Positions 47,399 to 64,000 of a stretch of 64,000 nucleotides of DNA are shown one piece after another. A program made the translations under genes and the position numbers. Where the stretch lies: assembly GCA_963730445.1 (NCBI GenBank), contig CAVSRX010000006.1, positions 26,082 through 90,081 on the forward strand. Reading direction: 5' to 3'. Under the pieces are notes generated by a model that saw nothing but the letters and a program-made list of their open reading frames with translations, ran no database searches and had not been told where the DNA came from. Position 1 is the first letter of the stretch, and every line of letters starts with the position of its first letter. This DNA is from Vicinamibacterales bacterium. Lineage in GTDB: Bacteria > Acidobacteriota > Vicinamibacteria > Vicinamibacterales > JAMQPK01.

Positions 47399-47418
47399 TG
47401 TCCGGCTTCAGCCGGACC
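47396..47418 (+). promoter_or_regulatory. conserved small hairpin motif, copy 1 (TAGT, 7-bp stem, TTCA, stem, C)
   Basis: TAGT GTCCGGC TTCA GCCGGAC C. The TAG is the sialidase stop. The hairpin ends 21 nt before ATG 47439, with GAGGAG in between. Confidence 0.6.
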
Positions 47419-47438
47419 GCGAAGTCGAGGAGTGCAAC

Positions 47439-48681: not shown

Positions 48682-48724
48682 TACCTAGAGATCTATAGAT
48701 CTTAGATCTATAGATCTTTAGGTA
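48682..48724. repeat. AT-rich 43-nt near-perfect palindrome built from TAGATCT words
   Basis: TACCTAGAGATCTATAGATCTTAGATCTATAGATCTTTAGGTA. Only one non-central mismatch pair (G:T). Four AGATCT. 13 of 43 bases are G/C. TAG at 48686, 48696, 48703, 48711 and 48719 covers all frames. Confidence 0.85.
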
Positions 48725-48741
48725 CAGTTTGAGAGGTTTTC

Positions 48742-49125: not shown

Positions 49126-49130
49126 AAGAT

Positions 49131-49215
49131 GGGTTCCAGGTTCCAGGTTCAGGTTGCGTCCAGGTTCCGGTTCCGGGTTCTGGTTCCGCGTCCAGAACCT
49201 GGAACTCGGAACCTG
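49131..49215 (+). repeat. GGTTCCR-word array ending in a 22-23 bp hairpin
   Basis: GGGTTCCAGGTTCCAGGTTCAGGTTGCGTC, then CAGGTTCCGGTTCCGGGTTCTGG (49161-49183), loop TTCCGCGT, then CCAGAACCTGGAACTCGGAACCTG (49192-49215). One bulge and one mismatch. Confidence 0.8.
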
Positions 49216-49236
49216 TCCCGTTGTAATTTAGAAAGT

Positions 49237-49503
49237 ATGTGCAGGAACATCAAGACACTGGCCAATTTCGAGCCGCCCGCAACGGGAGATGAGATCCGCG
49301 CGTCGGCCCTTCAGTTCGTGCGCAAGCTCAGCGGGATGAACAAGCCGTCGCGCGCCAATGAAGCCGCGTTCAATCGCGCCGTCGAGGAAGTGACCGACGC
49401 CGCGCAGCGGCTCATTGCCTCGATCGCGACGAGCGCGCCGCCGCGCAATCGTGAAGAGGAAGCGCGAAAAGCGCAGGAGCGTGCCCGCGAGCGATTTGCC
49501 TGA
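49237..49503 (+). CDS. DUF2277 domain protein
   Basis: MCRNIKTLANFEPPATGDEIRASALQFVRKLSG.. is the characteristic DUF2277 N-terminus. Confidence 0.8.
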   Translation: MCRNIKTLANFEPPATGDEIRASALQFVRKLSGMNKPSRANEAAFNRAVEEVTDAAQRLIASIATSAPPRNREEEARKAQERARERFA

Positions 49504-49504
49504 C

Positions 49505-50542: not shown

Positions 50543-51068
50543 CGAAGGAACGGTCATGGCATGTCGTTCGCGCGACGGTCGGTTCGCATTCTGGTTTGGC
50601 GTGGCGGCTCATCGGCGTTCGGCGCGATCTTCAGTGCGGTGCAGGTCGGGATACGGTTCAGGAGCAGCAATACGGGCGCGAAGGGCAGACTCGATCGATG
50701 GCGTCGTGGTGAGCAAGGACCATCAGGCGCGCCACGCGCGGCGGGTCGAGCGGCACGGCACCGAGTACACGGTCGCGTATCGCTTCACGGTCGGCGGACA
50801 GACCTACAACGGCGAAGACGTCGGTCTCGTCGAGGAGTGGGAACAGTTGCGCGAGCTGGAGCCGGTGCCGATTCAATACGTCGCAGTCGAATCCGCGCGA
50901 GAGAACCGGATCGCCGGCCGCACGACAGGCGCTCGATGTGGTCGTGTGCTATCAGTATCGGATGGCGTACGGGGCCGTACGGCGCTCACGGAGGGAAGTG
51001 TCCATGGTGAAATCGATCGGTTCTGCAAAGACGAAAGCGCGTATCTGGACACACGGCACTGCCAGTGA
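50535..51068 (+). pseudogene. DUF3592-like membrane protein, several frame switches
   Basis: Core IDGVVVSKD..YTVAYRFTVGGQTYNGED..PVPIQYV..ENRI (ORF 50535 frame). The N-terminal TM text FGAIFSAVQVGIRF lies in the ORF 50561 frame. The C-terminus is unclear. Confidence 0.35.
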
Positions 51069-51133
51069 GAGCCACTGTCGGCCGAGTCGACGGAATACGA
51101 ACGTCAAATCGACAGAGCCCCGGATCTGAGCGT

Positions 51134-52082
51134 GTGGTTGTCCTGATTACCGGGGCTGCCGGCAATCTCGGCAGCCTGCTCTCGCGCCATCTGCTGACGA
51201 GCGGGCACGAGCTTCGGCTGATGTATCACCGCACACCGCTCGCCGCCGATGTCGTCGCGGCGCCGAATGTACGTGCCGTCAAAGCCGATCTCGCCGATCC
51301 TTCCACATTGCCGGCCGTCGTCGACGGCGCCGACGTCATCGTGCATTTCGCGGGGCGGCTGTTTGCTCCGCGGCCGGAGAGATTTCTGCACGAGACCAAC
51401 ACGCGATGGTTTTCGAATCTCGTGACAGCAGCGATCGATGCCAGAGTGAACCGGATTATCCTCACGTCGTTCCCTCACGTGGAAGGACCGACGTCTGTGG
51501 AGCAGCCGGCGACAGGCCGTCTCGATCGCACAGCCCATCTCGGCTCATGCCGCAACGCGACTCGAGGAAGAGCGTCTGTTGTTCGAGCGCACGAAGAACA
51601 CATCAACGATACCCGTGGTGCTTCGGCTGGGCGCCGTGTACGGGCGCGGCATCCTGATGGTCGAGGCGGCTCGATGGCTCGCGAAGCGGCGCCTCCTCTG
51701 TGTCTGGCGGGAGCCGACGCTCTTTCATCTGCTCTCCACGGCGGACTTTCTGCGGGCGACCGAAGCGGCCATCTTCAAATCAGGCGTGCACGGCATTTAT
51801 CACATCGGCGACGAGCAGCCGGTGACCGCACAGGAATTTCTGGACGCCGCGTGCCGGGTCTGGGGTTATCCCGCACCACGCCGGTTGCCGTTCTGGATGA
51901 TCTACGCGGCGGCATGCGTCTGCGAAGGCGTTGCTCTGGTGGCGCGCACGCCATCGCCGCTTACGCGAGACTTCGTGCGGCTCGGACGCGTGCCGCATTG
52001 GGGTGACACGCGCCGCGCGCGCGAAGAGCTGATTCCAGAGCTGATGTATCCGACGCTCGAATCCGGACTCTCGACGCTTTGA
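51134..52082 (+). CDS. NAD-dependent epimerase/dehydratase (SDR) family protein; one frameshift near 51540
   Basis: GTG 51134: VVLITGAAGNLGSLLSRHLL..VIVHFAG (ORF 51065 frame) joins ORF 51579..52082 (..VVLRLGAVYGRG..GIYHIGDEQPVT..). Confidence 0.75.
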
Positions 52083-52102
52083 CATAAGATAGCCGGCGCG
52101 TC

Positions 52103-52467
52103 GTGGCCAGCAGGCAATCGTTCCGCGCGCGAATGAAGATTCGCGACGGCAATCCCTACGTCGACATCAGCACATCTCGTGCACGAGCCTTGAAGCCGGG
52201 CTGGCGCCGGCCGCTGCCCGTGCTTGTCAGGGTGAACGGACAACCGGCTTCGACGCCATGGCGCATCAACCTGATGCCGACCGGCACCGGCGCCTTCTAT
52301 CTGTACAAGCGGCGAAAGCATGGGACGCGCTCATCCCGAGCCGCAAGAAGGAAATTCTTCGCTACTTCTCGTGGCTCAAGTCGCCGGCGGCACGCGATCG
52401 CAATGTTGCGCGCGCGATACACGTGTTGTCGGGCAAAGGGGGCCGGTTTATGGCCCGATCGTGGTGA
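52103..52467 (+). CDS. DUF1905 / YdeI-OmpD-associated family protein; one frameshift near 52305
   Basis: FRARMKIRDGNPYVDI..PVLVRVNGQPASTPWRINLMPTGTGAFYLY (ORF 52103). Then AAKAWDALIPSRKKEILRYFSWLKSPAARDRNVARAIHVLSG (ORF 52258..52467). Confidence 0.6.
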
Positions 52468-52476
52468 GGAGTCTAG

Positions 52477-52962
52477 ATGGATACCAGAGTTGCGCCGCTC
52501 GCCGACATTCTTCGCCTTAATACGGTGCTCTTCCGCAACTGCCTCGATGGTCTCAGCGACGAGCAGGCGGCGATGCGGCCAACGGGCGCCACCAACAACG
52601 CCGCGTTCGTGGCTGCGCATCTGACGAACTCGCGCTTCTATCTGCTGAAGGTGCTGGGTGTTGCGGACGAGGATCCGCTCGCACCGTATCTGGACGGGCA
52701 GAAGAGCCTCGACGAGATCGAGCGGCTTCCTCCGCTCAGCGAGATTCAAACCGCCTGGTCGAAAGCCGCACATCTGTTACGCGATCGTCTCGCGGCGCTC
52801 ACGCCGGCCGATTTGGATGGGCCTTCGGCTACTCGTTTTCCGCTGTCCAACGGAACGCTGCTGGCGACGCTGACATTCCTCGTGCAGCACGACAGCTACC
52901 ACGTTGGTCAGCTGTCCTTGCTGCGAAAGTACTGCGGTCTGCCGGCCATGCGTTTTCAGTAG
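52477..52962 (+). CDS. DinB family protein
   Basis: 161 aa. ..NNAAFVAAHLTNSRFYL..LTFLVQHDSYHVGQLSLL. Confidence 0.8.
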   Translation: MDTRVAPLADILRLNTVLFRNCLDGLSDEQAAMRPTGATNNAAFVAAHLTNSRFYLLKVLGVADEDPLAPYLDGQKSLDEIERLPPLSEIQTAWSKAAHLLRDRLAALTPADLDGPSATRFPLSNGTLLATLTFLVQHDSYHVGQLSLLRKYCGLPAMRFQ

Positions 52963-53018
52963 CGCTTGGATTCCCGGCGCTCCCCGCGCTAGACTTCGCG
53001 CCACTCACAGGAGGCCGA

Positions 53019-53951
53019 ATGAAAGTACCGCGTACAGGTCTGGTCGCTGCGGGCTGCGTGCTTGCCGGCGTTCTCATGGCAATGCCGCAAGGCGTGCAAG
53101 GGCAGGCAGGCGGCCATGGCCAGGCCGGTCCCGGTCACGGCCCGAACGGCGCGCCGGGAAAAGCCACGGCGACGCCCGTCGATCCGGGACGGCCGTGGGG
53201 TTGGGCCGTTCGCGCCTTCATGGACGATCCGAAGCAGCCGCTCTACAACACGACGAAGCAGAAGATGCTCGAGGGCAAGCAGGTCTTCAGCCAGACCATC
53301 ACGTCGTTCGACGTCAAGGCGTACTGCGACGGCGCGGCGAAGTTCGACTTCTCCCGCTTTGAAATGCAGCATTCGACGCTGCGCTTCGACGAGATCGAGA
53401 AAATGATCGCGGCGTGCCCGCGCGCGGCCGCCACGCCGATCATTCGCATTCCGGACGCAACCGAAACGCAGGTGCAGCGCGCAGCTGACGTGGGCGCCCT
53501 CGGCATCATCGTGCCGACCGTCGACGATGCCATCGAGTCGCGATCGGTGGCGATGTTCGCGCGCTTTCCGCCGATTGGGCGCCGCAGCACGGGCGGCGGC
53601 CAGGCGGGCAGCATCTGGAGTCCGGTGATCACGAAGCCGAACACCTTCCGCTCGACGATCAACGACAACATGCTCGTCATCGTCATGATCGAGACGCAGG
53701 AGGCCGTGAAGAACGCGCTCGAGATTGCTTCGCAGCCGGGCGTCGACGTCGTGATTATCGGCAACGCCGACTTCGAGTCGTTCTCGGGCTTCCCTCCGAC
53801 CAGTGCCGGCTATCTCGACCTGCAGACGCGCGTTCGCAATGCCACGTATCTCGCGGGAAAGTTCTGGGGCAACGCGAACCCCGGCTTCTCGCGAAACAAT
53901 CCGCTCGCGGCAGAATCGCGCTTCCACCTCGGCGTTCCACCGGCGAAATGA
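53019..53951 (+). CDS. HpcH/HpaI aldolase/citrate-lyase family protein with N-terminal signal peptide and Gly/Pro-rich linker
   Basis: MKVPRTGLVAAGCVLAGVLMAMPQGVQGQAGGHGQAGPGHGPNGAPG.. Then FDFSRFEMQHS, IIRIPDATETQVQRAADVGALGIIVPTVDD, VIVMIETQEAVKNALEIAS.PGVDVVIIGNADF. Confidence 0.8.
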   Translation: MKVPRTGLVAAGCVLAGVLMAMPQGVQGQAGGHGQAGPGHGPNGAPGKATATPVDPGRPWGWAVRAFMDDPKQPLYNTTKQKMLEGKQVFSQTITSFDVKAYCDGAAKFDFSRFEMQHSTLRFDEIEKMIAACPRAAATPIIRIPDATETQVQRAADVGALGIIVPTVDDAIESRSVAMFARFPPIGRRSTGGGQAGSIWSPVITKPNTFRSTINDNMLVIVMIETQEAVKNALEIASQPGVDVVIIGNADFESFSGFPPTSAGYLDLQTRVRNATYLAGKFWGNANPGFSRNNPLAAESRFHLGVPPAK

Positions 53952-53952
53952 C

Positions 53953-54476
<524 letters not shown>

Positions 54477-54486
54477 TGGAGGCGTC

Positions 54487-54895
54487 ATGCTGAGAGCGAA
54501 GACTCGCATCGGCGGTCGTCGTGGTGGCGATGGTGTGGATTGGATCGGCGGTTGTGGCGCAGACGCCGGGTACCGCCGGCGCTCTCGTGCTGAACCCGAT
54601 CGCGGCAACCTCGGGCACCGGCGTGAGCAATGCGCAGCTCATCAACCGCGACGAGATTCGCGTGCTGCGCGTCGACGTGGTGCCGGGCGGCGTGCGCAAC
54701 ATTCACTCGCACGACGACATGCAGTATCACCTCTTCATACCGACGGCGGCCGGCATGCAGTTCGAGAGCGCGTCGGAGAAGCCGGCACAGATGGCGGCGT
54801 GGCAGGCGCAATTCGTCAAGGGCGGCACCCAGCACGGCTTCAAGAACACGGGCTCGTCCACCGTGACGATCGTGGAAATTTTCGTCAAGAAGTAA
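54487..54895 (+). CDS. exported cupin domain protein (start region frameshifted, or GTG 54521 start)
   Basis: ORF 54521..54895: RVLRVDVVPGGVRNIHSHDDMQYHLFIP..FVKGGTQHGFKNTGSSTVTIVEIF. ATG 54487 (MLRAKTRI) lies one frame off the hydrophobic AVVVVAMVWIGSAVVAQ segment. Confidence 0.7.
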
Positions 54896-55130
54896 CCACG
54901 AAGACACGAAGGCACGAAGAGCGCGAAGACACGATGAAATGCCGCGTCACGCGTTCTTCGCGGCTTAATCGCGGCTTCGATTGCGCCGGCTGCAAAGCAA
55001 GCCGCCGCCGTGAGAACAACGGCAAAACATGAATGGCTGGAGCGAAACCAATTCATGTTCTTGCCGTTGTTCTCACGGCGGCGCCGACGGCGCGCAATCG
55101 AAGCGTAGCCTTCGAGCCTTCGTGTTCGTA
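54896..55130. repeat. gene-free nested palindrome with CACGAAGR-word arms
   Basis: Word array CACGAAGA CACGAAGG CACGAAGA GCGCGAAGA CACGA (54898-54934). Partner CCTTCGAGCCTTCGTGTTCG (55109-55128). Perfect 13-bp pair GCTTCGATTGCGC (54975-54987) with GCGCAATCGAAGC (55091-55103). Central 31/32-nt arms 55004-55034 and 55051-55082, one bulge, 16-nt loop. Confidence 0.85.
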
Positions 55131-55146
55131 TTTTTGTGATCGGGAA

Positions 55147-55176
55147 CTCTGCGTCTCTGCGCCTCTGCGTCGAGAC
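55147..55176 (-). repeat. CTCTGCGY-word unit, dispersed copy of the 35142-35171 arm
   Basis: CTCTGCGT CTCTGCGC CTCTGCGT CGAGAC matches CTCTGCGC CTCTGCGT CTCTGTGT CGAGAC at 35142-35171 at 27 of 30 positions. Both lie just 3' of a minus-strand gene. Confidence 0.8.
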
Positions 55177-55185
55177 GGGCAAAAG

Positions 55186-55815
55186 CTATGGTTTGGGAAT
55201 TCTCAGCGTCGCGCTGATCATCGCGCTGCCGCTCACGCCGTAGACGAGGGCCATCGGGTGGAGCAGCGCGGGGCCGATCTGGTAGGCGCCGAACCACAGG
55301 CGATCGTCGATGCGCCCTAGATATGACGCGACGCCGAGCAGCAGGACGATGACGATGCTCGTCGGTATCGGCGTGCCCTCGAAATATTTCACCTTGCCGG
55401 TCTCACTGTCGGAGAGCGCGGCGGCCGTCACGTTGAAGCGGGCGAGACGGCTGACGCCGCAGATGACGAAGTAGGTGAGGATGAGCATGTCCCATCCTCC
55501 CCGCATGCCGAGCGTGAAGCCGAGCACGGCCGGCGCGACGCCGAACGAGATGACGTCGGCCAGCGAGTCGAGATCGGCGCCGAGCACCGACTGCCGCCGG
55601 CGGTTCAGCCGCGCCACATAGCCGTCCAGCACGTCGCACACGAGCGCGAGCGGCAGCAGCAGGAAAGCCGTCCACAGGAACCGCCGGTTGTCCGCGGCGA
55701 TGTAGTCGAGGCACAGGAAGATGGCGATCGTGCCGCACGCCGCGTTGCCGATCGTCAAGGCGTCGGCGGGCGTGTAGGACCGCAGCATCGACATGTGGCG
55801 GCGCTGTGTGTTCAT
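55186..55815 (-). CDS. pssA: CDP-diacylglycerol--serine O-phosphatidyltransferase (CDP-alcohol phosphatidyltransferase family)
   Basis: ORF 55186..56010(-) trimmed to MNTQRRHMSMLRS (ATG 55815; alternative ATG 55794). DVLDGYVARLNRRRQSVLGADLDSLAD matches the D-G-x2-A-R..G-x3-D-x3-D motif. Confidence 0.85.
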   Translation of the reverse strand: MNTQRRHMSMLRSYTPADALTIGNAACGTIAIFLCLDYIAADNRRFLWTAFLLLPLALVCDVLDGYVARLNRRRQSVLGADLDSLADVISFGVAPAVLGFTLGMRGGWDMLILTYFVICGVSRLARFNVTAAALSDSETGKVKYFEGTPIPTSIVIVLLLGVASYLGRIDDRLWFGAYQIGPALLHPMALVYGVSGSAMISATLRIPKP

Positions 55816-55837
55816 AGTGTCCGCCTTTAGGCGGACC
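55815..55837 (+). promoter_or_regulatory. conserved small hairpin motif, copy 2
   Basis: TAGT GTCCGCC TTTA GGCGGAC C. Ends 22 nt before ATG 55859. Relative to copy 1 the stem differs by compensatory changes (GGC/GCC versus GCC/GGC). Confidence 0.6.
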
Positions 55838-55858
55838 CTGTTAGAGTATCTCCAATCG

Positions 55859-56280
55859 ATGAGCCGTCGCGAGCAGGCTGGAGTCATCCCCTTCCGTCGA
55901 AAGAAAGATGGCATCCAGGTCTGCCTGATTCGCAACAAGGGCCGCAAGAAGTGGAAAATTCCGAAAGGGTTTGTCGATCCTGGTGAGACGGTCGAGCAGG
56001 CGGCGCTCAAGGAAGCCTGGGAAGAGGCCGGACTGACGGGGCGCCTGGTCGGCGAGCGCGATCGGATCCTACGACTACGACAAGTGGGGATTCGATTTCA
56101 GAGTGTCTGTCTATCTTGATGGAAGTGACCGATCAGGAAGATGAGTGGGAGGAATCACGATTTCGTGAGCGCCGCTGGTCGCCGGTCGGCGAGGCGTTCG
56201 ACATGCTGAGAAAGCATCCGATCCGGCCGTTGCTCGAGGCAGCGGCGACCAAGCTCGAGAGGAGAAAGAAGCCGCGATGA
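55859..56280 (+). CDS. NUDIX hydrolase; two frameshifts (about 56055, 56115)
   Basis: MSRREQAGVIPFRRKKDGIQVCLIRNKGRKKWKIPKGFVDPGETVEQAALKEAWEEAGL (Nudix box). Own translation of the other frames: IGSYDYDKWGFDFRVSVYL, then MEVTDQEDEWEESRFRERRWSPVGEAFDMLRKHPIRPLLEAA, stop at 56278-56280. Confidence 0.7.
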
Positions 56281-56733
56281 AGATGTTCCTGGTGGTGCTG
56301 ATGATGGCGTTGCTGCCTGCTGTCGCCGGCGCACAAACGAAGCCGCCGGCCGACAACAAGGCGATTGCGCGGCGATACTTCGACGAGATCCTCAACAAGG
56401 GCAGCGCGGCCGCGACTCGACTCGATCATTGCGGCCGACGTGGTGTTTCGCAATCCGCCGGCCGTCGTCAAGGGCATCGCAGAGTTTCGGAAGCTCATTG
56501 CGTCGCTGCGCGGCGCGTTTCCCGATCTCCATTTCACGCTCGAAGACGAGCTCGCCGAAGGCAACAAGGTTGCGACCCGCTGGGTGATGCGCGGCACGCA
56601 GGGCGCCCGCAAGGTGGACGTCAGCGGCATGGACATCTTTCTGATCGAGAACGGGAAAATCAGGGAGATCTGGGTGAACATGGATTCGCTGGCGCAAGCG
56701 CAGCAGATGGGCGCTGTGCCCGCGCAGATGATG
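56277..56733 (+). CDS. SnoaL-like ester cyclase, exported; one frameshift near 56410, 3' end uncertain
   Basis: MKMFLVVLMMALLPAVAGAQ..NKAIARRYFDEILNKG (ORF 56277). Then LDSIIAADVVFRNPP..GIAEFRKLIASLRGAFPDLHFTLEDELAEGNKVATRWVMRGT..IENGKIREIWVNMD (ORF 56365). No stop before the next gene's signal peptide. Confidence 0.7.
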
Positions 56734-58128
56734 ATGAAGACGGCTTCCGCGCTCTCGGCGTGTGCTGTCGTCCTCGTCTTCGTGCGGCAGCCATGCGGGC
56801 GCGCAGCCAGCGCCCTCTGCCGATCGCGCGCTCGCGCGCGAGATTCTCGAAGAGCTCGTTGAGATTCAAACCACAGAGGAACAGGGCACGGCGCGCGCGG
56901 CCGCAGGCGATGGCCGCACGGCTGATTGCCGCCGGGTTTCCAAAAGACGACGTGCACGTCATCGGCCACGATGCGCGAACGCAGAATCTGGTTGCGCGCT
57001 TTCGGGGACCGAACCCCGGCGCGCGCGGCGTACTGCTGATGGCGCACATCGACGTCGTGCCCGCGCGGCGCGAAGACTGGTCGGTCGATCCGTGGACCTT
57101 TCTGGAGCGCGACGGTTGGTTTTACGGTCGAGGTTCGACCGACAACAAAGCCGGCGCGGCGATGCTCGTCGCCAACTTCATCACGTTGAAGCGCGCGGGA
57201 TGGAAGCCGGCCCGCGATCTCGTCATCGTGCTGACCGGAGACGAAGAAACGGCGCAGAAGAGCATTCAGTGGCTGCTTGCCGAACGGCGCGCGCTGGTCG
57301 ATGCCGAGATCGCTTTCAACACCGATGGCGGCGGCGTAAAGCTGAGGGATGGCCGTCCGGCTGTCTTCGAAATGCAGGCGAGCGAAAAAATCTACGCGGA
57401 CTATCAGCTCGAAGTGACCGACGTGGGCGGCCACAGTTCGCTCGTGCGGCCCGATAATCCGATTTACACGCTGGCCGCGGCGCTCACGCGCATCGGCGAA
57501 CATCAGTTTCCGCTGCATGTGAACGAGGTGACGCGGATGTTTCTCGAGCGGGCGGCCGCGACGGAGAGCGGACAGACCGCGATCGACATGCGCGCCGTCG
57601 CCGCCGTGAAGCCCGACCTGGCCGCCGCCGCGCGGCTGTCGCGCACGCCGTTCTACAACGCGCAGATTCGCACGACGTGCGTGGCCACAAAAGTCGAGGC
57701 AGGGCCACGCGAACAACGCGCTGCCGCAGATGGCGCGCGCGGTGGTGAACTGCCGGATTCTCCCCGGACTGCCTGGCGCAGACGTCGAGGCTGTCGTCCG
57801 CCGCCTCGCCGGCGAGAAGGTGAAGGTGACGGTGCTCGAGCCGCCGATCGCCAGCCCACCGTCGACGCTCACGCCGGCGCTGTTGTCGCGCCTCGAACCG
57901 CTCATCGCAAAACACTGGCCGAATATTCCCGTGATTCCTTTGATGCAGGCGGGCGCGACCGATGGGATGTACACGAGGAACGCCGGGATTCCCACCTACG
58001 GCGTCTCCGGGATTGATGAGAATCCGGAGGATGTGCGCGCGCACGGAAAGGACGAGCGGGTCGGCGTCGAGTCGTTTTACAGGGCCACGCAGTTCTGGCT
58101 CGAGCTCATGAGGGAATTTGGACAATGA
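56734..58128 (+). pseudogene. M20 family metallopeptidase, 3 frame switches (about 56790, 56895, 57710)
   Basis: MKTASALSACAVVLVFV. REILEELVEIQTTEEQGT (ORF 56762 frame). LLMAHIDVVPA..FYGRGSTDNKAG..VIVLTGDEE..EVTDVGGHSS (ORF 56277 frame). ARAVVNCRILPG..AGATDGMY..DERVGVESF (ORF 57730..58128). Confidence 0.8.
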
Positions 58129-58934
58129 CTAAATCCATCGTACTCATCGCGCTGATGCTCACCGCCACCGTATCGGGCCAGCAGAAGCCGGCGCCAATCG
58201 GCTACGACGACACGCCCATGCAGCCCAACGGGAAGTGGCGCGTGCACCAAACCGCGCGCCCGTACCCGGCCGTCATCACGCCGCCACCGGCCGGCGGTCC
58301 TGTCGCGCCTCCATCCGACGCCATCGTGCTGCTCGGTGCGGCCGACGATCTCAGCGCGTGGCAGATGGACGATGGATCGGCAGCCACATGGGCGATGAAG
58401 GGCGGCGTGCTGCACACAGGCAAGGGGATGCTGCGCACCAAATACCAGTTCACCGATGTGCAGCTGCATGTCGAGTTCGCGACGCCGTCCGAGGTGAAAG
58501 GCGACAGCCAGGGACGCGGCAACAGCGGCGTGTTCCTGCTCGGCCACTTCGAGATCCAGGTGCTCGACAGCTATCGCAACATCACGTATGCCGATGGCCA
58601 GGCCGCGTCGATGTACGGGCAGTATCCGCCGCTCGTGAACGTGGCGCGCGCGCCGGGAGAGTGGCAAGCCTACGACATCATCTTCAGAGCGCCGCGTTTC
58701 GCCGGCGACGGACAACTCGCGAAGCCTGCCCTCGTCACCGTGCTGCACAATGGCGTCGTCGTGCACCACGCCACGCCGTTCTGGGGCCCGACGCGCCATC
58801 GCAGCGTCCTGCCCTACACACCGGCCATGGCGAGGGGACCGCTCGCCCTGCAGGACCACGGAAACCCCGTCCGCTATCGCAATATCTGGATTCGCGCGCT
58901 GAGGGATTACGACACCGGGGGTGACGGGTGGTAG
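58125..58934 (+). CDS. DUF1080 (3-keto-disaccharide hydrolase) family protein, exported
   Basis: Intact 269 aa. GNSGVFLLGHFEIQVLDSY, PGEWQAYDIIFRAPRF, VLHNGVVV, GPLALQDHGNPVRYRNIWIR. Confidence 0.85.
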   Translation: MTKSIVLIALMLTATVSGQQKPAPIGYDDTPMQPNGKWRVHQTARPYPAVITPPPAGGPVAPPSDAIVLLGAADDLSAWQMDDGSAATWAMKGGVLHTGKGMLRTKYQFTDVQLHVEFATPSEVKGDSQGRGNSGVFLLGHFEIQVLDSYRNITYADGQAASMYGQYPPLVNVARAPGEWQAYDIIFRAPRFAGDGQLAKPALVTVLHNGVVVHHATPFWGPTRHRSVLPYTPAMARGPLALQDHGNPVRYRNIWIRALRDYDTGGDGW

Positions 58935-59017
58935 CTACTAGCTGGTAGCTGGTAGCTTGTAGCCGGTAGCCTGTAGCACGTGGCTGTAGCTCGAAGCTGA
59001 TAGCTTGTAGTTAGTAG
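58931..59017 (+). repeat. GTAGCTN heptamer array (about 13 units), left inverted-repeat arm of the four-helix-bundle cassette
   Basis: GTAGCTA CTAGCTG GTAGCTG GTAGCTT GTAGCCG GTAGCCT GTAGCAC GTGGCT GTAGCTC GAAGCT GATAGCTT GTAGTTA GTAGCGG. TAG at 58932, 58939, 58946, 58953, 58960, 58967 and 58974. Spans the whole gap between two convergent stops. Confidence 0.9.
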
Positions 59018-59385
59018 CGGCCCTCCGGGCGCATGGATGCGATCAGGCCGTTCAACATCTTGCCCACTTCTTCGACGATTTCTTGAATCCGATCGTAGTC
59101 ATGCGTGGCGAGAAACCCCACACGCTTTGCGATTTCTAGCTGAACTTCGACCTCGGCCTGAGACCCGAGCGCGATGTCGAGGTGATTCAAGAATACTGTC
59201 TGACGCTTGCGGCGTTTTCCCTCACCGATGTTTGAAGGAATTGAAACGCTTGCCCGACGGATCTGAGACGTGAGGCCAAATTGCTCGGAGCGCGGGAATG
59301 ATTTGGTGACGCTGTAAATTTCCTCAACGAGCGTCATCGATCGCTGCCACACCGTCAGATTGCGAAACGATTCATGGTTAGTCAT
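59011..59385 (-). CDS. four-helix-bundle protein (TIGR02436 / 23S rRNA intervening-sequence protein / Avd-like family)
   Basis: ORF 59011..59490(-) trimmed to ATG 59385. MTNHESFRNLTVWQRSMTLVEEIYSVTKSFPRSEQFGLTSQIRRASVSIPSNIGEGKRRKRQTVFLNHLDIALGSQAEVEVQLEIAKRVGFL.. Confidence 0.85.
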   Translation of the reverse strand: MTNHESFRNLTVWQRSMTLVEEIYSVTKSFPRSEQFGLTSQIRRASVSIPSNIGEGKRRKRQTVFLNHLDIALGSQAEVEVQLEIAKRVGFLATHDYDRIQEIVEEVGKMLNGLIASMRPEGRY

Positions 59386-59494
59386 GCTGCGACAGGCTGC
59401 AAGGTGCGTGCTGCGCAGAATTGCGGGAAATCGCGAGATTTCATGTAGACGTTGCAATTTCTGCGATCCGCAGGATCGCAATTTCTGCAACGCC

Positions 59495-59565
59495 CGGCTA
59501 CCGGCTACCGGCTTATGGGCTACCAGCCACAGGCTACAAGCTACCGGCTACCAGCTACCAGCTAG
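59495..59565 (-). repeat. right inverted-repeat arm (reverse-complement GTAGCYN heptamers, about 10 units)
   Basis: CGGCTAC CGGCTAC CGGCTTATG GGCTAC CAGCCAC AGGCTAC AAGCTAC CGGCTAC CAGCTAC CAGCTAG. CTA at 59498, 59505, 59520, 59534, 59541, 59548, 59555 and 59562. Confidence 0.9.
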
Positions 59566-59596
59566 ACGTGTAAAGTACCGCCCCGGAGGACAGCTC

Positions 59597-60394
59597 ATGA
59601 GATCGTTATTGATTGCCACTGCGCTCCTCATTGCGCAGCCTGCGTTCGCGCAGCTTGCGCCGCACAACGAAGCGGGCGTTACCTTCGGACATGTGCATCT
59701 GAGCGTAGCCGACCCGAAGGTGCATCATCAGATGTGGGTGGAGCAGTTCGGCGGTGTGGTAGCCACCAAGGGCACCTTCACCATCGTGAAGCTGCCCAAC
59801 ATGATGATCGCCTTTCGCGGCACGAAGCCGACGGGCGGCACCGAGACGACGGCGCTGAACCACTTCGGGCTGAAGGTGCCGAGCATGGCCAACGCCATCG
59901 CAAAGTGGAAAGCCGCGGGCTACGAAGTACAGCGCGAGTTCAAGGGCAGCGAGGGATTTCCGAACGCGTTCCTGATCGGTCCCGACGGCCTGCGCTTCGA
60001 GCTCCAGGAAGACACCACGTTGAAGGCGCCGGCCGTCGCGTATCACCTGCACTTCCAGGTGCCCGAGCCGGCGAAGCTTCGCGATTGGTACGTGGACACC
60101 TACGGGCTGAAGGCCGGCAAGCAGGGCAACTTCGAAGTGGCCGAGGCGCCGGGCATGCGGTTGCTGTTCGCGCCCTCGAAGGAAGCGCCCACGATGGGCA
60201 CGCGCGGCACGACGGTCGATCACATCGGCTTCGAGATTCGCAATCTCGCCGAGTTCCTGAAGAAGCTCGAGGCGAAAGGCATCAAGCTGGAGACCGCGTA
60301 TCGCGAGATTCCGGCGATCGGCCTCAACATCTCGTATCTCTACGATCCGTTGAACGTGTATATCGAGATGACGGAAGGGTATACGGGGTACTGA
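59597..60394 (+). CDS. two-domain VOC family protein, exported
   Basis: GGAGGA then ATG 59597. MRSLLIATALLIAQPAFAQ. FGHVHLSVADPKVHHQMW..NHFGLKVPS and ..YHLHFQVPEP..VDHIGFEIRNLAEFLKKLEAKG. Confidence 0.8.
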   Translation: MRSLLIATALLIAQPAFAQLAPHNEAGVTFGHVHLSVADPKVHHQMWVEQFGGVVATKGTFTIVKLPNMMIAFRGTKPTGGTETTALNHFGLKVPSMANAIAKWKAAGYEVQREFKGSEGFPNAFLIGPDGLRFELQEDTTLKAPAVAYHLHFQVPEPAKLRDWYVDTYGLKAGKQGNFEVAEAPGMRLLFAPSKEAPTMGTRGTTVDHIGFEIRNLAEFLKKLEAKGIKLETAYREIPAIGLNISYLYDPLNVYIEMTEGYTGY

Positions 60395-60450
60395 GTCGAA
60401 GAGTCGAAGAGTCGGAGAGAGTCGAAGAGTCGGGGAGTCGAAGAGTCGGG
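60393..60450 (+). repeat. tandem octamer array GAGTCGRR x7
   Basis: GAGTCGAA GAGTCGAA GAGTCGGA GAGAGTCGAA GAGTCGGG GAGTCGAA GAGTCGGGG. Starts inside the TGA stop (60392-60394) of the VOC gene. Confidence 0.85.
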
Positions 60451-60483
60451 GCGATGGCGGTGAGCTGTCGCCCCGTTTTGTTT

Positions 60484-61122
60484 ATGGGTGGATTGATCGA
60501 TCTTCGGACATGGAAGCGGCGCGACCACTATTTGTGGTTCCGCAACTACGCGCAGCCGTTCTTCAGCGTGACGGTTGACGTCGATGTGACCCCCGTGTGG
60601 AACAAATGCCGCAAGCCGGGGGCGCCGTCCTTCTTTCTGTCGTCTGTGTTTCCGATGTTGAAAGCCGCGAACGATGTCGAGGCGTTCCGCCTGCGCCTTC
60701 GCCCGCGTGGCGTGTGGCGCCACGATCGTGTGGCCGTCGGTCCAACCATCATGCGGCCGGATGACACATTCGGCTTCGTGCGCCTTGAGCCGGCGGCGAG
60801 CTTCGAGGAATTTTCCGCGCATAGTCGAGCGGCGATCGCGCGTGCCGCGGAGCGGAAAGCACTGGCGCCGTCTAAAAAGATCACCGACGACATCATCTTC
60901 CAGTCGGTGCTGCCGTGGCTGCGCTTCACGTCGTTCACGAACGCCTTGCCGGGTAAGGGCGACTCGATTCCACGCGTGGTGTTCGGCCAGTGCGCGCGCC
61001 AGGGCTCGCGGATGACCATGCCGGTGGCCGTCGAGGTGCACCATGCGCTCGTCGACGGTCTCGACGTGGCGCGATTCTTCGAGCGCTTCGGCGAGTACAT
61101 TCATAGTAGTGCTGACCTTTAG
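60484..61122 (+). CDS. CatA-like (chloramphenicol-type) O-acetyltransferase family protein
   Basis: In the frame of ORF 59734..61122. MGGLIDLRTWKRRDHYLWFRNYAQPFFSVTVDVDVT..FQSVLPWLRFTSFTN..MPVAVEVHHALVDGLDVARFF. An alternative ATG lies at 60454. Confidence 0.75.
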   Translation: MGGLIDLRTWKRRDHYLWFRNYAQPFFSVTVDVDVTPVWNKCRKPGAPSFFLSSVFPMLKAANDVEAFRLRLRPRGVWRHDRVAVGPTIMRPDDTFGFVRLEPAASFEEFSAHSRAAIARAAERKALAPSKKITDDIIFQSVLPWLRFTSFTNALPGKGDSIPRVVFGQCARQGSRMTMPVAVEVHHALVDGLDVARFFERFGEYIHSSADL

Positions 61123-61129
61123 GTCAGCC
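61107..61129 (+). promoter_or_regulatory. conserved small hairpin motif, copy 3
   Basis: TAGT GCTGACC TTTA GGTCAGC C. The stop TAG of the acetyltransferase (61120-61122) spans the loop-stem junction. Ends 23 nt before ATG 61152, with GGAGG in between. A further GGTCAGCC repeat follows at 61131-61138. Confidence 0.6.
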
Positions 61130-61151
61130 AGGTCAGCCTGGAGGCACACAT

Positions 61152-62209
61152 ATGAAGCGCGCATCGCTCGTGCTCGTCGCTGCGGTCTTGTGTGCCGCGT
61201 TTCCTGCCGCGCAATCGAAGACGCTCGACATCTACGTCCTCGACGTCGAAGGTGGAAACGCGACGCTGTTCGTGACGCCGTCTCGCGAATCGGTGCTGAT
61301 CGACACCGGCAACGGCGGGCCTGCGGCTGTGCGCGACGCCGATCGCATCATGGCCGCCGTCAAGGACGCAGGGCTCGCGCAGATTGATGCGCTCGTGACG
61401 TCGCACTGGCACGGCGATCACATGGGCGCGATGGCCGAGCTGGCGAGCCGTATCCCGATTCGCCACTACCTCGATCACGGCGGCAACGTGCAGCCGGCAG
61501 CCGCGATCGACGCGTTTCTGAAGGACACCTATCCCGGGCTGTTCGCGAAATCGAAGCACACGGTCGTGAAAGCAGGTGAGACGGCTGCCGCTGAAGGGTG
61601 TCGAGTGGCGTTTCGTCACGTCGGCCCGCGAGAGCATCAGGAATCCGCTGCCCGGTGCGGGCCGCCCGAATCCGCACTGCGCGGGATTCAAGCCGCACGA
61701 CGGTGAATCCGGTGTCGGGCCAGCCGGTCGGCAACACCGAAGACGAGCACTCAGTCGGCTCGCACGTGACCTTCGGCAAATTCCGCGCGCTGTATCTCGC
61801 CGATTTTCCGTGGAACAAAGAGTTCGAGCTGATGTGCCCCACCAATCGTCTGGGGACGGTCGAGTTTCTCCTGGTGTCGCGCCACGGCCAGCACAGCTCG
61901 AATTCCGAAGCACTGGTGCACGCGTTGCGGCCGCGCGTGGCGGTCATCAACAACGGCATCCGCAAGGGCGGACAGCCCGAGACGATGCGGGTGCTGTATT
62001 CGAGTCCGGGGTTGGAAGATATCTGGCAGGGTCACGTCGCGCAGCTGAGCGGGCCGGAGCATGCCATCCCCGGAATTTTCGTCAGCAATATCGTCGACGA
62101 TCCGCAGCACAGCCCGGCGTATTGGATTAAGGTGTCGGCGCAGTCGGACGGTTCGTTTACGGTGACGAACAGCCGCAACGGGTTCAGCAAGACTTACTCC
62201 CCGCCCTGA
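61152..62209 (+). CDS. MBL-fold metallo-hydrolase (ComEC-type beta-lactamase domain), exported; two frameshifts (about 61575, 61700)
   Basis: LDIYVLDVEGGNATLFVTP..VLIDTGNGG..DALVTSHWHGDHMGAM (ORF 61152). RLPLKGVEWRFVTSA (ORF 61576 frame). GSHVTFGKFRALYLADF..EFLLVSRHGQHSSNS..VAVINNG (ORF 61598..62209). Confidence 0.7.
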
Positions 62210-62231
62210 GCGAGCGGAGCGAGTCGAAGGG

Positions 62232-62637
62232 TTACGCCGCTTCCGCGGTGAGGATTTTCTCGAGGCGCTGCACGACCTCGCGGTAGCCGAAGCGCTTGTA
62301 CAGAAGGTGAGCGCCGTGGCGCTGGATGATCTCGTCTTCCGTCGCGTCGACCTCGGTCACGCCCGTCAGCACGACCACCGGCACGTCGTCGTAGCGCGCC
62401 TCGAGCCGCATCTGTTCGAGCACTTCCAGTCCCGATCGTTCCTCCGCCAGCCGCAGGTCGAGAATGACGGCATCGATGTTCGCCGACCTCAAACGCAACA
62501 GAGCAGTCTCAGGATCGCTCGCGTGCAGCACGTCGCAGCCTGCGCGCGCGAAAAACTGTTCGAGAATGCACCGTGTCGTCAGCGCGTCCTCGACGACGAG
62601 GACTGTGCGCCGGGGACTGGGCTTGAGGATCAGTCAT
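62232..62637 (-). CDS. single-domain response regulator (CheY-like); one frameshift near 62605
   Basis: Own translation from ATG 62637: MTDPQAQSPA. One frame over: TVLVVEDALTTRCILEQFFARAGCDV, joining ORF 62232..62531(-) LHASDPETALLRLRSANIDAVILDLRLAEERSGLEVLEQMR..VPVVVLTG. Confidence 0.7.
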
Positions 62638-62793
62638 GCCAGTCACCGGGGCAACATCGATACCACAATAAACCGTCGATTAAGCCCTTTGTTCATGGCA
62701 CTTTCTGGGTTGCACAGTCCTGCACGGGGCACAGCGTGTGCCGTGCTGGAACAAGAAGTTGCACCGTTGTAAGCGGTACTCTACCGTTAGAGG

Positions 62794-64000
62794 ATGAAAA
62801 AACTCGCTGCTGCCGCGCTTCTGGTGACCGCGGCGGCTGCTCGCTGCCGCCTTCGCGCAAGGCGCAGCAGGAAACAACCCCCATTTTCCGGGCCGGAACG
62901 ACGCTGGTGGAGTTCTCGATTGTCGCGACCGACGAGCGGGGGCAGCCGGTCACCGATCTCAAGCAGAACGAAATCGCCATCGTGCAGAACGGCAAGCCGC
63001 AGCCGGTCGCGTTCTTCCGATTCGAGGGCTCGGCGTTCGCGCCGGATGCCGCCGAGCCGGTGCGCGAGTCGATCGCGCCAGGCATCTTCACCAACCGCGT
63101 CGAGTACTCGCCCGGGCCGGCGCGCAACGTGACGGCCATCGTCATCGACACCCTCAACACGCTGCCCGAAGATCAGGTGGCGGTGAAGGCGCAGGTGATG
63201 CAGTACCTCCGCGCGCTCGCGCCCAACACGCGCGTGGCGGTGTACATGCTCGGAGCGAACCTGCGCATCCTCCACGACTTCACCGACGATCTCGACGCGC
63301 TGCGCGCGCGGCTCGCGAAGCACAACATCGAGTTCAACGTTCAGGCGATCTCGGCCGACGAGCTGAACCGCCGGCAGCTGCAGGAGGCCGAGCATTTCAA
63401 TGACGCGGTCGACCAGTACGCCGAGGACGGCGCTGATGAAGACGCGAGAGTTCGAGGCCGAGCGCCAGGCAGAGCTCAACAAAGTGCGCGGCCACATCGC
63501 CAGGGCTGAAGAATATTTTCAGGAACAGCTGCACATGCGCCGCATGAACCAGACGGTTGCGTCGCTCGAGGCGCTGGGCAATCACCTGTCAGGCATTCCC
63601 GGGCGGAAGAACATGGTCTGGATTAGCGGCGGCATCGCGGTGCTGACGCAGGGCGCGCAGGATCGCTGGGTCAACACCTACGCGACGCAGGTGCGCGGGC
63701 TGGCGCAACGTCTGGCGACGCAGGGCATCACGGTGTATCCGGTGCAGGCCACTGGGCTCGCAGGTCGGCATTCTCGGAACGAATACGACGGCGCAAGGCT
63801 CGAGCAAGGGGCAGGAGGAGAAGATGCAGCTGCGCCCCATGACGAGAGAGAACGATCTGCGCATCTGGGGCACGATGGATATGCTGGCCGATATCACCGG
63901 CGGCCGCGCCTTCCGGAACACGAACGAGCTGACGGCCGGCGTGCGCGCGGCAGCCACCGACATGCGCGGCTCGTACTCGGTCGGCTTCTACGTTCCTGAA
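62794..64000 (+). pseudogene. second TIGR03436-type VWA domain protein, at least 3 frame switches, runs off the right edge
   Basis: MKKLAAAALLVTAAAA (ORF 62794). IFRAGTTLVEFSIVATDERGQPVTDLKQNEIAIVQNGKPQPVAFFRFEG..VTAIVIDTLN (ORF 62307 frame). ..GRKNMVWISGG..GITVYPVQA (ORF 63400). Own translation of the last frame: ..WGTMDMLADITGGRAFRNTNELTAGVRAAATDMRGSYSVGFYVPE. Confidence 0.7.

Follow-up and report, generated by a model that had tools for sequence, protein, structure and literature searches.

Results

Architecture of the locus

The window, by which we mean the whole 64-kb stretch of DNA that was analysed, comes from a Vicinamibacterales acidobacterium and carries on its minus strand, at 59011-59385, a gene for a four-helix-bundle (4HB) protein of the PF05635/TIGR02436 family. 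The gene sits between a DUF1080 gene and a glyoxalase/VOC-family gene, and it is bracketed by two arrays of 7-nt units that are inverted with respect to each other. Arrays of the same word family also bracket a second cassette near 36 kb. The features of the two loci are as follows.

58125-58934, plus strand: left neighbour, a DUF1080 / 3-keto-disaccharide hydrolase family gene (ORF and Pfam)
58929-59018, unstranded: left array, 13 degenerate GTAGCYN heptamers (TRF, inverted-repeat search, word search)
59011-59385, minus strand: 4HB protein gene, 124 aa (PF05635, TIGR02436 and NF008911 profiles)
59398-59412, minus strand: conserved AGCACG-N4-TTGCA element, -24/-12-like as well as palindromic (GCA-N7-TGC), with its end 12 nt from the ATG
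59450-59492, minus strand: leader palindrome with two GCAGAAATTGC words (inverted-repeat search; a predicted local hairpin on the fold)
59494-59565, unstranded: right array, 10 CCGGCTA/CAGCTAC heptamers that reverse-complement the left array (TRF, inverted-repeat search, word search)
59566-60394, plus strand: right neighbour, a conserved 5' UTR (ACGTGTAAAGTA..GGAGGA) and a glyoxalase/VOC-family gene (59597-60394)
36013-36770, unstranded: second cassette, whose arms belong to this word family and lie at 36013-36046 (plus) and 36737-36770 (reverse complement)
36054-36443: cupin gene inside the second cassette
36516-36734: 72-aa membrane-like ORF inside the second cassette

The 4HB protein matches PF05635 over its full length (E 1.9e-38; 131.4 bits, cut-off 33.8), and it also exceeds the thresholds of TIGR02436 (126.5 bits, cut-off 24) and NF008911 (139.4 bits, cut-off 137). 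By sequence similarity, its closest solved structure is 2GSC (XCC0516; E 3e-23), followed by 2RLD (E 1e-8), and both depositions contain five chains. An exact-sequence look-up with the window's protein found no record.

Pfam scans of genes between 47.6 and 62.2 kb identified acetamidase, DUF2277, DinB, cupin-like, CDP-OH transferase, SnoaL, M20, DUF1080, VOC, CAT and MBL genes; there is no reverse transcriptase (RT) among them, and the neighbours scanned in this way include no transposase or recombinase. Because no Rfam family matches the 64-kb window, we conclude that it holds no rRNA. No direct repeat of at least 40 nt, and hence no TR/VR-like pair of that length, lies in 44000-64000. The initial annotation regarded the locus as neither a DGR nor a true intervening sequence (IVS), and this is upheld by an Avd score below cut-off and by the absence of RT, TR/VR and rRNA from the parts searched. 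The left and right arrays adjoin the DUF1080 stop codon and the conserved UTR, respectively; no direct repeats lie at either edge, and no target-site duplication was found.

The left array begins at the DUF1080 stop codon and overlaps that of the 4HB gene. As annotated initially, TAG occurs at 58932, 58939, 58946, 58953, 58960, 58967 and 58974, the first of these being the stop of the ORF at 58125-58934, and CTA occurs in the right array at 59498, 59505, 59520, 59534, 59541, 59548, 59555 and 59562. The 4HB stop is a minus-strand TAA (59011-59013 on the plus strand) inside the final left-array units. TRF assigns both arrays a period of 7, with 13.0 copies on the left (58929-59018) and 10.0 on the right (59494-59564). 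On the sense (minus) strand of the gene, the right array forms a G/T-rich 5' arm and the left array a C/A-rich 3' arm.

The inverted-repeat search aligns the two arms over 41 nt at 90%, 46 nt at 85% or 47 nt at 83% complementarity. The word pair GTAGCYNGTAGCY, with at most one mismatch, occurs 21 times where 0.25 occurrences are expected, a count reached in none of 100 shuffles, and every match falls in one of four arrays, at 36013-36046(+), 36737-36770(-), 58931-58998(+) and 59496-59565(-). Folding of both strands agrees with the earlier proposal that the arms could pair: a long terminal stem formed by the arrays is predicted in the MFE and centroid folds of each strand, with energies of -265.9 kcal/mol (z -6.6) and -277.6 kcal/mol (z -7.1). 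The locus thus has the terminal inverted repeats, making a long enclosing stem, by which an IVS is recognised. For the second locus singled out at 36012-36772, the word search and the fold bear out the claim that its arms belong to the same word family; the arms form the terminal stem of its MFE fold, with a weak overall z of -2.7 (1 of 20 shuffles was as good).

Upstream of the 4HB gene, 39 of 69 non-redundant loci have a -24/-12-like motif whose end lies 12-15 nt from the start, as against 0.5% of control windows. An SD-like word is present in 2 of the 69 and is absent from the window's gene. A sigma-70 promoter scan of 58700-59800 found none, and the sole terminator-like match was at chance level. 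From its sequence and position, we infer that the AGCACG-N4-TTGCA element is the promoter or operator of a near-leaderless transcript. Its assignment as a -24/-12 promoter is uncertain, as the -24 'GG' reads 'AG' in the window's clade and the motif is also palindromic. The GCAGAAATTGC word (GC....A.TGC) is kept in the leaders of orthologues, and the leader palindrome that contains it is possibly a binding site for a regulator. Because the promoter-like element lies 3' of the 5' arm, the stem would form only in read-through transcripts and not in the gene's own mRNA.

The junction in related genomes

At the orthologous DUF1080/VOC junction of relatives, the 4HB gene is found in either orientation, or decayed, or replaced by a short array hairpin, and the final codons and stop of the DUF1080 gene are part of this variable module. 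Against its orthologues, the 4HB gene has dN/dS values of 0.04-0.10, with dS above 1 between most lineages; by this measure, it is under strong purifying selection. Despite saturated dS between lineages, the arms still match within each genome. They also switch unit jointly, such that TAGCTGG/CCAGCTA alternates with TAGGTGG/CCACCTA between lineages at one junction.

The initial annotation envisaged a cassette type that fits no described class of mobile element. Recent mobility is contradicted by dS above 1 between most lineages and by a tree in which the 4HB clade agrees with genomic context. On these comparisons, the locus is an old, mostly vertically inherited resident of the DUF1080/VOC junction. 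Inversion, decay, loss and whole-allele replacement are all seen there.

We count at least five orientation flips within the syntenic clade, and further flips in the LapB/CoaE/FolD context. Both orientations are observed between species, with no recombinase among the neighbours, and in a 98%-identical contig (L081) the segment faces the same way as in the window. The gene has been lost in L001, L003, L004 and L006 while the arrays persist, and L003 has a decaying copy between intact arms. L124 and L006 differ by presence and absence of the gene within flanks that are 93-94% identical; relative to L124, the 'empty' allele of L006 has the whole junction module replaced, including the last DUF1080 codons, rather than a clean excision. 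The window and each related locus (20-64 kb sampled each) have a single 4HB copy, and none are near-identical. Extra arrays of the 4HB-arm word follow the VOC gene in L005 and L009. We also considered whether the VOC gene missing from L082 had been deleted between direct arrays, and dropped this idea because the breakpoints lie away from the arrays.

Survey of flanking arrays

The median flank inverted-repeat score is 53 for 4HB genes compared to 17.5-20 for DUF1080, VOC, CAT and M20 controls, and shuffles reach at most 27. When a score of at least 34 is taken to mark an arm-bearing relative, inverted arms are present in 57 of 74 relatives, whereas inverted flanks occur at none of the control genes (0/81 DUF1080, 0/16 VOC, 0/11 CAT). 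Other copies of the gene lacking arrays would have spoken against the bracket; arms were found in these relatives and in most of the distant members examined, while about one fifth of the relatives, like the cyanobacterial loci L173, L174 and L168, are without clear inverted arms.

In 13 of 32 loci the two arms share their dominant unit; 2000 permutations averaged 4.8 such loci and never exceeded 12. Arm mismatches fit G-U pairing in 93 cases on the gene's sense strand and 61 on the antisense strand, a modest bias that is uncorrected for phylogeny, and 148 of the mismatches are transversions, at which pairing in the best register is lost. The arms have a polarity, in that G exceeds C in the 5' arm. 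The arm unit family (TGGTAG/TGGTT-like) is kept across 4HB clades that are ~63% identical and lie in different contexts, whereas the units of gene-less hairpins turn over.

Such hairpins are abundant: the 1.34 Mb scanned contain 30 inverted same-unit array pairs and 6 direct ones. Their units are diverse, and the loops of most measure 7-47 nt. Relatives differ in the arrays that they have at a given junction, and a small common vocabulary of units recurs across Vicinamibacterales genomes at shifting positions. Most arrays in these genomes have units other than those of the 4HB arms. Inverted arrays of short units whose loops contain nothing, or just a non-coding hairpin, are widespread in these genomes. 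Since gene-less inverted arrays are so common, the 4HB arms are one case of a broader genome feature and need not serve the 4HB gene. We rejected the idea that the gene-less hairpins are remnants of lost 4HB loci, given that their units are too diverse and that they far outnumber 4HB genes.

The array bracket accompanies 4HB genes in at least five phyla of bacteria. One example is a true rRNA IVS, the Azospirillum lipoferum copy (L163), in which a heptamer-repeat stem surrounds the same gene family within 23S rRNA. Gemmatirosa has a 4HB gene of the same array-bracketed design, and cyanobacterial plasmids carry bracketed copies at sites that include nrdB/nrdA, cas10/cmr3 and cas6/cas4. On Nostoc PCC 7120 plasmids, the arms are TCTGCCC and not the genome's dominant GGGGAYT repeat. 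In Xanthomonadaceae, the gene lies inside accB-accC with GGGAATC-repeat arms, the same word as in the genome-wide arrays of Xanthomonas, which number ~186 and include 70-75 convergent pairs in each genome (Rehm et al. 2015, PMC4692102). The Coxiella IVS has a 28-bp terminal stem with tandem heptamers around an ORF of the 4HB family, and RNase III cuts it at the start of the first repeat (PMC4990558).

Discussion

Our analysis of the window describes a 4HB gene enclosed by inverted heptamer arrays, a design with relatives in several known systems. ORF-bearing rRNA IVSs have been known since the early 1990s. Those of 23S rRNA (Leptospira, Coxiella 'S23p', alphaproteobacterial, L163) have the same protein family in the loop, tandem-heptamer terminal inverted repeats, a long stem, variable heptamer copy number and a position within a transcribed unit. 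Unlike them, the window cassette lies between protein-coding genes with no rRNA in 64 kb, is found in either orientation, and has a 110-nt leader with a promoter-like motif; its processing by RNase III is proposed by analogy. A 23S IVS is inserted in helix 9, 25 or 45 of the 23S rRNA gene, and here the flanks are DUF1080 and VOC. The initial picture of IVS architecture in a protein-coding neighbourhood is supported by the heptamer stem and gene family, which the Azospirillum and Coxiella IVSs share. In the searchable literature, the Coxiella IVS paper is the only one to link the 4HB/S23p family with flanking heptamer arrays, although curators or subscription journals may have noted the link.

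The genome-wide heptanucleotide arrays, such as GGGAATC in Xanthomonas (PMC4692102), also consist of tandem 7-nt intergenic units that vary in copy number and often form inverted stem-loop pairs. They differ in that the window and Xanthomonadaceae arrays bracket a PF05635 gene, and searchable descriptions of the genome-wide arrays mention no link to PF05635 genes or IVSs. The window arrays have the properties of long SSRs, being head-to-tail 7-nt units in non-coding DNA with copy numbers that vary among relatives. Cyanobacterial STRR and, reportedly, the long SSRs of Mrazek et al. are further genome-wide heptanucleotide arrays of this kind.

In REPIN-RAYT systems, the RAYT gene is single-copy, vertically inherited and bracketed by inverted REPs that are also dispersed as intergenic hairpin-forming pairs. 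The 4HB locus is likewise a single-copy vertical gene between inverted copies of a short dispersed repeat, and flanking by a dispersed repeat is seen fully in Xanthomonadaceae and partly at the window locus. However, the 4HB protein does not have the HUH/Y1 transposase fold, its arms are tandem arrays instead of single palindromes, and most arrays have other units. Like invertible segments bounded by inverted repeats, the segment between the arms occurs in both directions among relatives, but there is no adjacent recombinase and the flips separate lineages with saturated dS. An inversion would carry the promoter-like element along with the gene and so would not act as an on/off switch. The DGR accessory Avd (bAvd, PDB 4DWL) has a homologous four-helix-bundle fold and is a basic protein; unlike Avd, the 4HB locus has no RT or TR/VR in the parts searched and a score below the Avd cut-off, and the three DGR Avd genes examined have no inverted arrays.

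Our best reading, which we would give about an even chance of being right, is that the locus is a resident IVS-type cassette, a functional PF05635 gene with a promoter-like leader set between inverted heptamer arrays that pair in read-through RNA. Whenever transcription of the host genes runs on through the insert, a duplex of 45-70 bp would form between the 5' arm, rich in G/U, and the 3' arm, rich in C/A, and the insert would be looped out of the read-through RNA. By analogy with rRNA IVSs, RNase III would probably cut this duplex. Looping-out and cleavage could make the insert tolerable within transcription units and rRNA, in either orientation. The 4HB gene's own transcript would begin downstream of the 5' arm and would therefore carry just the unpaired C-rich 3' arm. 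Arm complementarity may be kept through selection for pairing, template-switch correction between the arms, or both, and as DNA the inverted arms would be substrates for homologous inversion. We also considered that the C-rich 3' arm is a Rho loading site masked by the 5' arm in read-through RNA, which fits the G-first polarity. Since cyanobacteria, which we take to lack Rho, show the same polarity in their 4HB arms, this is kept as an idea only.

Processes acting on DNA alone could suffice to maintain complementarity, and the whole arrangement might be a by-product of this. In this unlikely scenario, slippage would create tandem heptamer/octamer arrays in intergenic DNA, gene conversion or template-switch (quasi-palindrome) correction would preserve the likeness of inverted pairs, and the 4HB gene would be in the loop by chance; the arms would have no RNA function, and their sole consequence would be inversion or deletion. 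The excess of inverted over direct same-unit pairs, their short loops and diverse units, the array content that differs between relatives at one junction, and the many transversion mismatches in the arms are all as expected, and heptanucleotide arrays with inverted pairs are already known across Xanthomonas genomes (PMC4692102). A by-product would not, however, be expected to flank most 4HB genes and none of the control genes, to recur with this gene family in five phyla and inside rRNA genes, or to retain its unit family across ~63%-identical clades while the units of gene-less hairpins turn over, and slippage alone leaves the G-over-C polarity of the 5' arm unexplained. A trans-acting partnership, in which the basic, presumably pentameric 4HB protein would be a putative binder or propagator of heptamer arrays as RNA or ssDNA, is in our view unlikely. 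The gene's own arms would then be cognate sites, serving autoregulation like that of TRAP/HutP or marking a 'master copy' like the REP-flanked RAYT genes. This would suit the five chains of 2GSC and 2RLD, the use of the genome-wide GGGAATC word in Xanthomonadaceae arms, the recurrence of the GTAGCYN word within the window only at the second cassette, the extra same-word arrays in L005 and L009, and the small unit vocabulary common to Vicinamibacterales genomes. The homologue bAvd binds nucleic acid and a polymerase, which we also count in favour of a partnership. Yet the 4HB fold lacks any catalytic motif, the units of most arrays in these genomes are unlike those of the 4HB arms, the Nostoc PCC 7120 plasmid arms differ from the genome's dominant repeat, and arrays stay where the gene has repeatedly been lost.

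A mobile element, with the arrays as terminal inverted repeats and some enzyme moving the cassette, is very unlikely. Hairpin loops or terminators might be its targets, as rRNA helix loops are for IVSs, whose mobility has long been suspected (PMC4990558). The presence and absence of the gene in L124 and L006, cassettes at several junctions among LapB, CoaE and FolD, insertion within operons and rRNA, and array-stem elements that come and go at one junction could all reflect movement. But the 4HB tree follows genomic context at a fixed location with saturated dS, the 'empty' allele is a replacement of the whole module, and inversions of segments bounded by arrays can account for the LapB/CoaE/FolD arrangements. 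With no target-site duplication, neighbouring transposase or recombinase, or near-identical copies found in the DNA sampled, the sequence data do not support a transposon at the window locus. That the gene is an orphan Avd of a degenerate DGR, or that the arrays are inward-facing all-frame stop ladders insulating an insert, is extremely improbable. The protein does have a weak bAvd match (PF22296, E 1e-13), but it reaches 51.6 bits with the Avd equivalog model NF033474, whose cut-off is 80, the annotated neighbours include no RT, 44000-64000 contains no TR/VR-like direct repeat of at least 40 nt, and three phage DGR Avd genes adjoin RT and are free of flanking inverted arrays, so we rejected a DGR remnant. 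The stop ladder, suggested in the initial annotation, is real at the window locus, where TAG recurs every 7 nt and hence in all three frames. It is not a general feature, because many other members have arm units with no stop codon (GGGAATC, TGGTTCG, GTGGTTG, GGCAGAA).

A bolder extension of the trans-acting model is that a PF05635 pentamer recognises a 7-nt periodic word in RNA or ssDNA and regulates, protects or propagates arrays, with the bracketed gene, including that of ORF-bearing 23S IVSs, as the 'master copy'. We consider this quite doubtful. If true, the PF05635-array partnership would be analogous to RAYT/REPIN and mechanistically related to Avd beside a polymerase.

To our knowledge, neither the origin of ORF-bearing rRNA IVSs nor the role of their ORF has ever been explained, and we know of no function assigned to the abundant heptanucleotide arrays of Xanthomonas, cyanobacteria and others. 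With the same bracket and gene family recurring across phyla, the rRNA IVS inserts look like one case of a wider element. Array arms around this gene family in rRNA, in essential operons including accB-accC, in cas operons and between unrelated genes tie the two puzzles together, and in our comparisons such arms prove to be active substrates for rearrangement of the local genome. Both puzzles thereby become concrete experiments in tractable organisms, among them Xanthomonas campestris, whose XCC0516 protein has a crystal structure.

Inverted heptamer arrays enclose the four-helix-bundle gene

The protein encoded at 59011-59385(-) is a clear PF05635/TIGR02436 member in profile searches, and among solved structures 2GSC (Xanthomonas XCC0516) is the nearest to it. 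Against the model for Avd, the accessory protein of diversity-generating retroelements (DGRs), its score stays under the cut-off. The initial annotation had described this four-helix-bundle (4HB) gene as lying between two inverted arrays of a degenerate heptamer, and its description agrees with the sequence of the locus:

58125-58934 (+): ORF upstream of the left array; its stop TAG is the first TAG of the array
58929-59018: left array, 13 degenerate GTAGCYN heptamers (TRF, period 7)
59011-59385 (-): 4HB ORF, 124 aa; its 3' end lies within the left array
59494-59564: right array, 10 reverse-complement heptamers (TRF)

The two arms, which we name 5' and 3' on the 4HB sense strand, match at 83-90% over 41-47 nt. 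Folding of both strands bore out the proposal that they could form a long terminal stem (z ~ -7). Searching the window for the double word GTAGCYNGTAGCY gave 21 occurrences versus 0.25 expected, all of them confined to this array pair and a second inverted pair (36013-36046 and 36737-36770), the GTAGCYN arms of a cupin cassette. Frames at 56277-58128 (SnoaL/M20 peptidase) and 61152-62209 (metallo-beta-lactamase) are apparently split by frameshifts. These may be long-read MAG assembly errors rather than pseudogenes, in which case the array copy numbers of the window could be slightly off too.

Relatives keep the arms alike

A metagenome scan using an alignment of close 4HB homologues gave 80 loci (63-98% identity). 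Nearly all share one layout, in which the 4HB gene has a G/T-rich array (units TAGCTGG, TAGGTGG, TAGTTGG(A), TGGTTCG or GTGGTTG) 120-180 nt to its 5' side and, immediately 3' of the stop, the reverse complement of that array. The inverted-repeat score of the 4HB flanks has a median of 53 and is at least 34 in 57 of the 74 loci with usable flanks, whereas control flanks (DUF1080, VOC, CAT and M20 genes) have medians of 17.5-20 and shuffles reach at most 27. The same unit dominates both arms in 13/32 loci (permutation mean 4.8, maximum 12). The 4HB gene has a dN/dS of 0.04-0.10, with dS >1 between most lineages, and is therefore functional and old. Since the arms of so old a gene still match, their likeness within each genome must be kept by selection or concerted evolution.

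The window was assigned to Vicinamibacterales, Acidobacteriota, from its DUF1080 protein, and related MAGs keep the gene order M20 peptidase, DUF1080, variable slot, VOC, CAT.

Content of the variable slot in the window and in related loci (L-numbers)
Window, L005: 4HB gene, minus strand
L007, L009: 4HB gene, plus strand
L001 (10977-12750): 4HB pseudogene, with an IS-like ORF of ~1.4 kb between it and the right arm
L003: 53-aa 4HB remnant
L004, L006: 79-106-nt gap with only a CAGGAGA/TCTCCTA hairpin

Inverted arrays surround every 4HB copy present at this junction; the unit is GTAGCYN or GGTAGGT by lineage, and the two arms always share it. On the host-gene tree every 'empty' genome neighbours an occupied one. 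Flank identity between L124 (occupied) and L006 (empty) is 93-94%, and what distinguishes the two is replacement of the whole junction module, from the last DUF1080 codons to ~15-20 nt before the VOC start. L082 lacks VOC, so that the conserved ACGTGTAAAGTA motif is directly followed by CAT.

Loci at this junction group as one clade of the 4HB tree, inside which there are at least five orientation switches. Other clades are located among KpsF, LapB, CoaE and FolD, where arrangements are set apart from each other by a flip of 4HB alone or of 4HB plus one neighbour; the arms therefore act as inversion breakpoints.

The leader of the 4HB gene

Two features are conserved among orthologues in the stretch from the 5' arm to the ATG: a pair of GCAGAAATTGC-like words (59450-59492 in the window) and a (G/A)GCAC-N5-TTGC element (59398-59412) whose spacing to the start codon is constant. 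This element ends 12-15 nt 5' of the start in 39/69 non-redundant loci versus 0.5% of control windows, only 2 of the 69 loci have a Shine-Dalgarno-like word, and no sigma-70-type promoter was found at the window locus. Judged from sequence, these features suggest a regulated, near-leaderless transcript, for which the -24/-12-like element may be the gene's own promoter, possibly of sigma-54 type. It could instead be an operator, because the motif is palindromic and its -24 'GG' reads 'AG' in the window's clade. If the element is a promoter, the 4HB mRNA would lack the 5' arm, and read-through transcripts alone would form the long stem. The distance from 5' arm to 4HB ATG is 12-45 nt in Xanthomonas and cyanobacteria, so there the gene must be co-transcribed with the arm.

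The design recurs in distant family members

The same design is common to distant 4HB members in cyanobacterial plasmids, Gemmatirosa, Azospirillum and Xanthomonadaceae:

Calothrix plasmid: arms AGGGTGT/CTACACC
Nostoc edaphicum plasmid: arms TAGGGAG/CTCCCTA, between nrdB and nrdA
Stanieria plasmid: arms GGCAGAA/TCTGCCC
Picosynechococcus plasmid: arms AGGAGAT/ATCTCCT, between cas10 and cmr3
Gemmatirosa: octamer arms

Additional cyanobacterial cases are found in Geminocystis, Leptolyngbya and Pseudanabaena. The Azospirillum lipoferum copy lies inside a 23S rRNA gene and is a true intervening sequence (IVS), and the XCC0516 family of Xanthomonadaceae lies within the accB-accC operon with GGGAATC arms. 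As exceptions, an IS cuts the 5' side in two loci, one locus is flanked on either side by purine-rich arrays in direct orientation, and two have weak arms.

In three Xanthomonas and Stenotrophomonas loci (L175, L177, L179), where the XCC0516-family gene sits inside this essential operon, the accC ATG immediately abuts the C-rich arm without an obvious Shine-Dalgarno. In X. sacchari the canonical terminator after accC gives way to another inverted GGGAATC pair, whose loop is 195 nt long. On cyanobacterial plasmids (L165, L172), cassettes stand between cas6/cas4 and cas10/cmr3. The 4HB family is flagged as CRISPR-associated in large-scale screens, and such cas-operon insertions may explain the flag, with no CRISPR function implied.

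Array pairs without a 4HB gene

Across 1.34 Mb (window plus related loci), same-unit array pairs number 30 inverted versus 6 direct. Most inverted pairs enclose a loop of 7-47 nt and vary in their unit, and 4HB genes occur there at the DUF1080 junction only. In 16/20 non-4HB inverted pairs (p 0.012; window and L001-L080), G exceeds C in whichever arm comes first in the 5'-to-3' direction, on either strand, as it does in every 4HB cassette examined, cyanobacterial, Xanthomonas and IVS copies among them. Two array-stemmed elements in the window are non-coding:

34869-35166: ~300 nt, no ORF, -187.6 kcal/mol, z -14
54896-55125 (to 55171 with a CTCTGCG array): z -9.2

The former, with a terminal stem of octamer arrays (CACAGAGG x3 and CCTCTGCG x3) and three near-perfect internal hairpins, resembles a 4HB cassette without its ORF. 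The latter consists of CACGAAGA x4.6 and its reverse complement around a perfect hairpin of ~170 nt, then the CTCTGCG array. L001, L003 and L009 lack it at the orthologous junction, where a GAACAGAA/TCTGATCT array hairpin is seen in L004 and a GAGTCCAAA/GACTCTTTT pair in L005.

Vicinamibacterales genomes share a small unit vocabulary (GAAAGTA, GAGTCGAA, GGTAGC, GGTTCC, CTCTGCG; in the window at 40422-40443, 54436-54475, 60391-60448, 49130-49215, 35140-35166 and 55146-55171) whose intergenic positions change, and the spacer 3' of VOC holds a different combination in each species (L001, L005, L007, L009). Array units seem conserved, but their locations do not. An ORF of 127 aa (48742-49125) that matches nothing in Pfam is bordered by a self-palindromic CTATAGAT array on one side and a GGTTCCA array hairpin on the other (48685-49215). 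L001 and L009 have this ORF, whereas L003, L004, L006 and L007 do not; it is another small array-flanked gene, patchy among relatives.

An IVS-type reading of the cassette

Rfam returned neither rRNA nor any other family in the whole 64-kb window, no template-like repeat lies within ~15 kb of the locus, and no reverse transcriptase or transposase is among the genes scanned (47.6-62.2 kb), consistent with what the initial annotation had stated on rRNA, template repeats and reverse transcriptases. Three Avd genes from phage DGRs each neighbour a reverse transcriptase, and their flanks lack inverted repeats. At least one test goes against a DGR remnant, a classical transposon and the earlier idea that the arrays serve as stop-codon ladders, and a recombinase-driven switch seems unlikely.

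The evidence best supports a resident IVS-type cassette whose arms would pair within host read-through RNA, the duplex probably being cut by RNase III on the model of rRNA IVSs. The Coxiella IVS has a 28-bp terminal stem and tandem GACAGAT heptamers of strain-variable number, and its RNase III cleavage site is where the first repeat begins (PMC4990558). We put the chances of this reading at about even, because the complementarity of the arms may possibly have a purely DNA-level origin. An attractive proposal is that the 4HB protein recognises the arrays in trans. The appeal of this putative role comes from Xanthomonas, in which GGGAATC, the arm unit of the XCC0516 family, forms ~186 arrays and 70-75 convergent pairs per genome (PMC4692102).

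Previously known are ORF-bearing IVSs, the 4HB family, Avd and heptamer arrays, which in Xanthomonas also form inverted pairs. We found no description in the literature searched of inverted heptamer-array arms on this family outside rRNA across phyla, of their co-evolution or of cassettes flipping in place, and these seem to be what is new here. Under the IVS-type reading, pairing and cutting of the arms would let operons and rRNA tolerate the insert, whichever way it faces, and the same arms, as DNA, would give rise to inversions.
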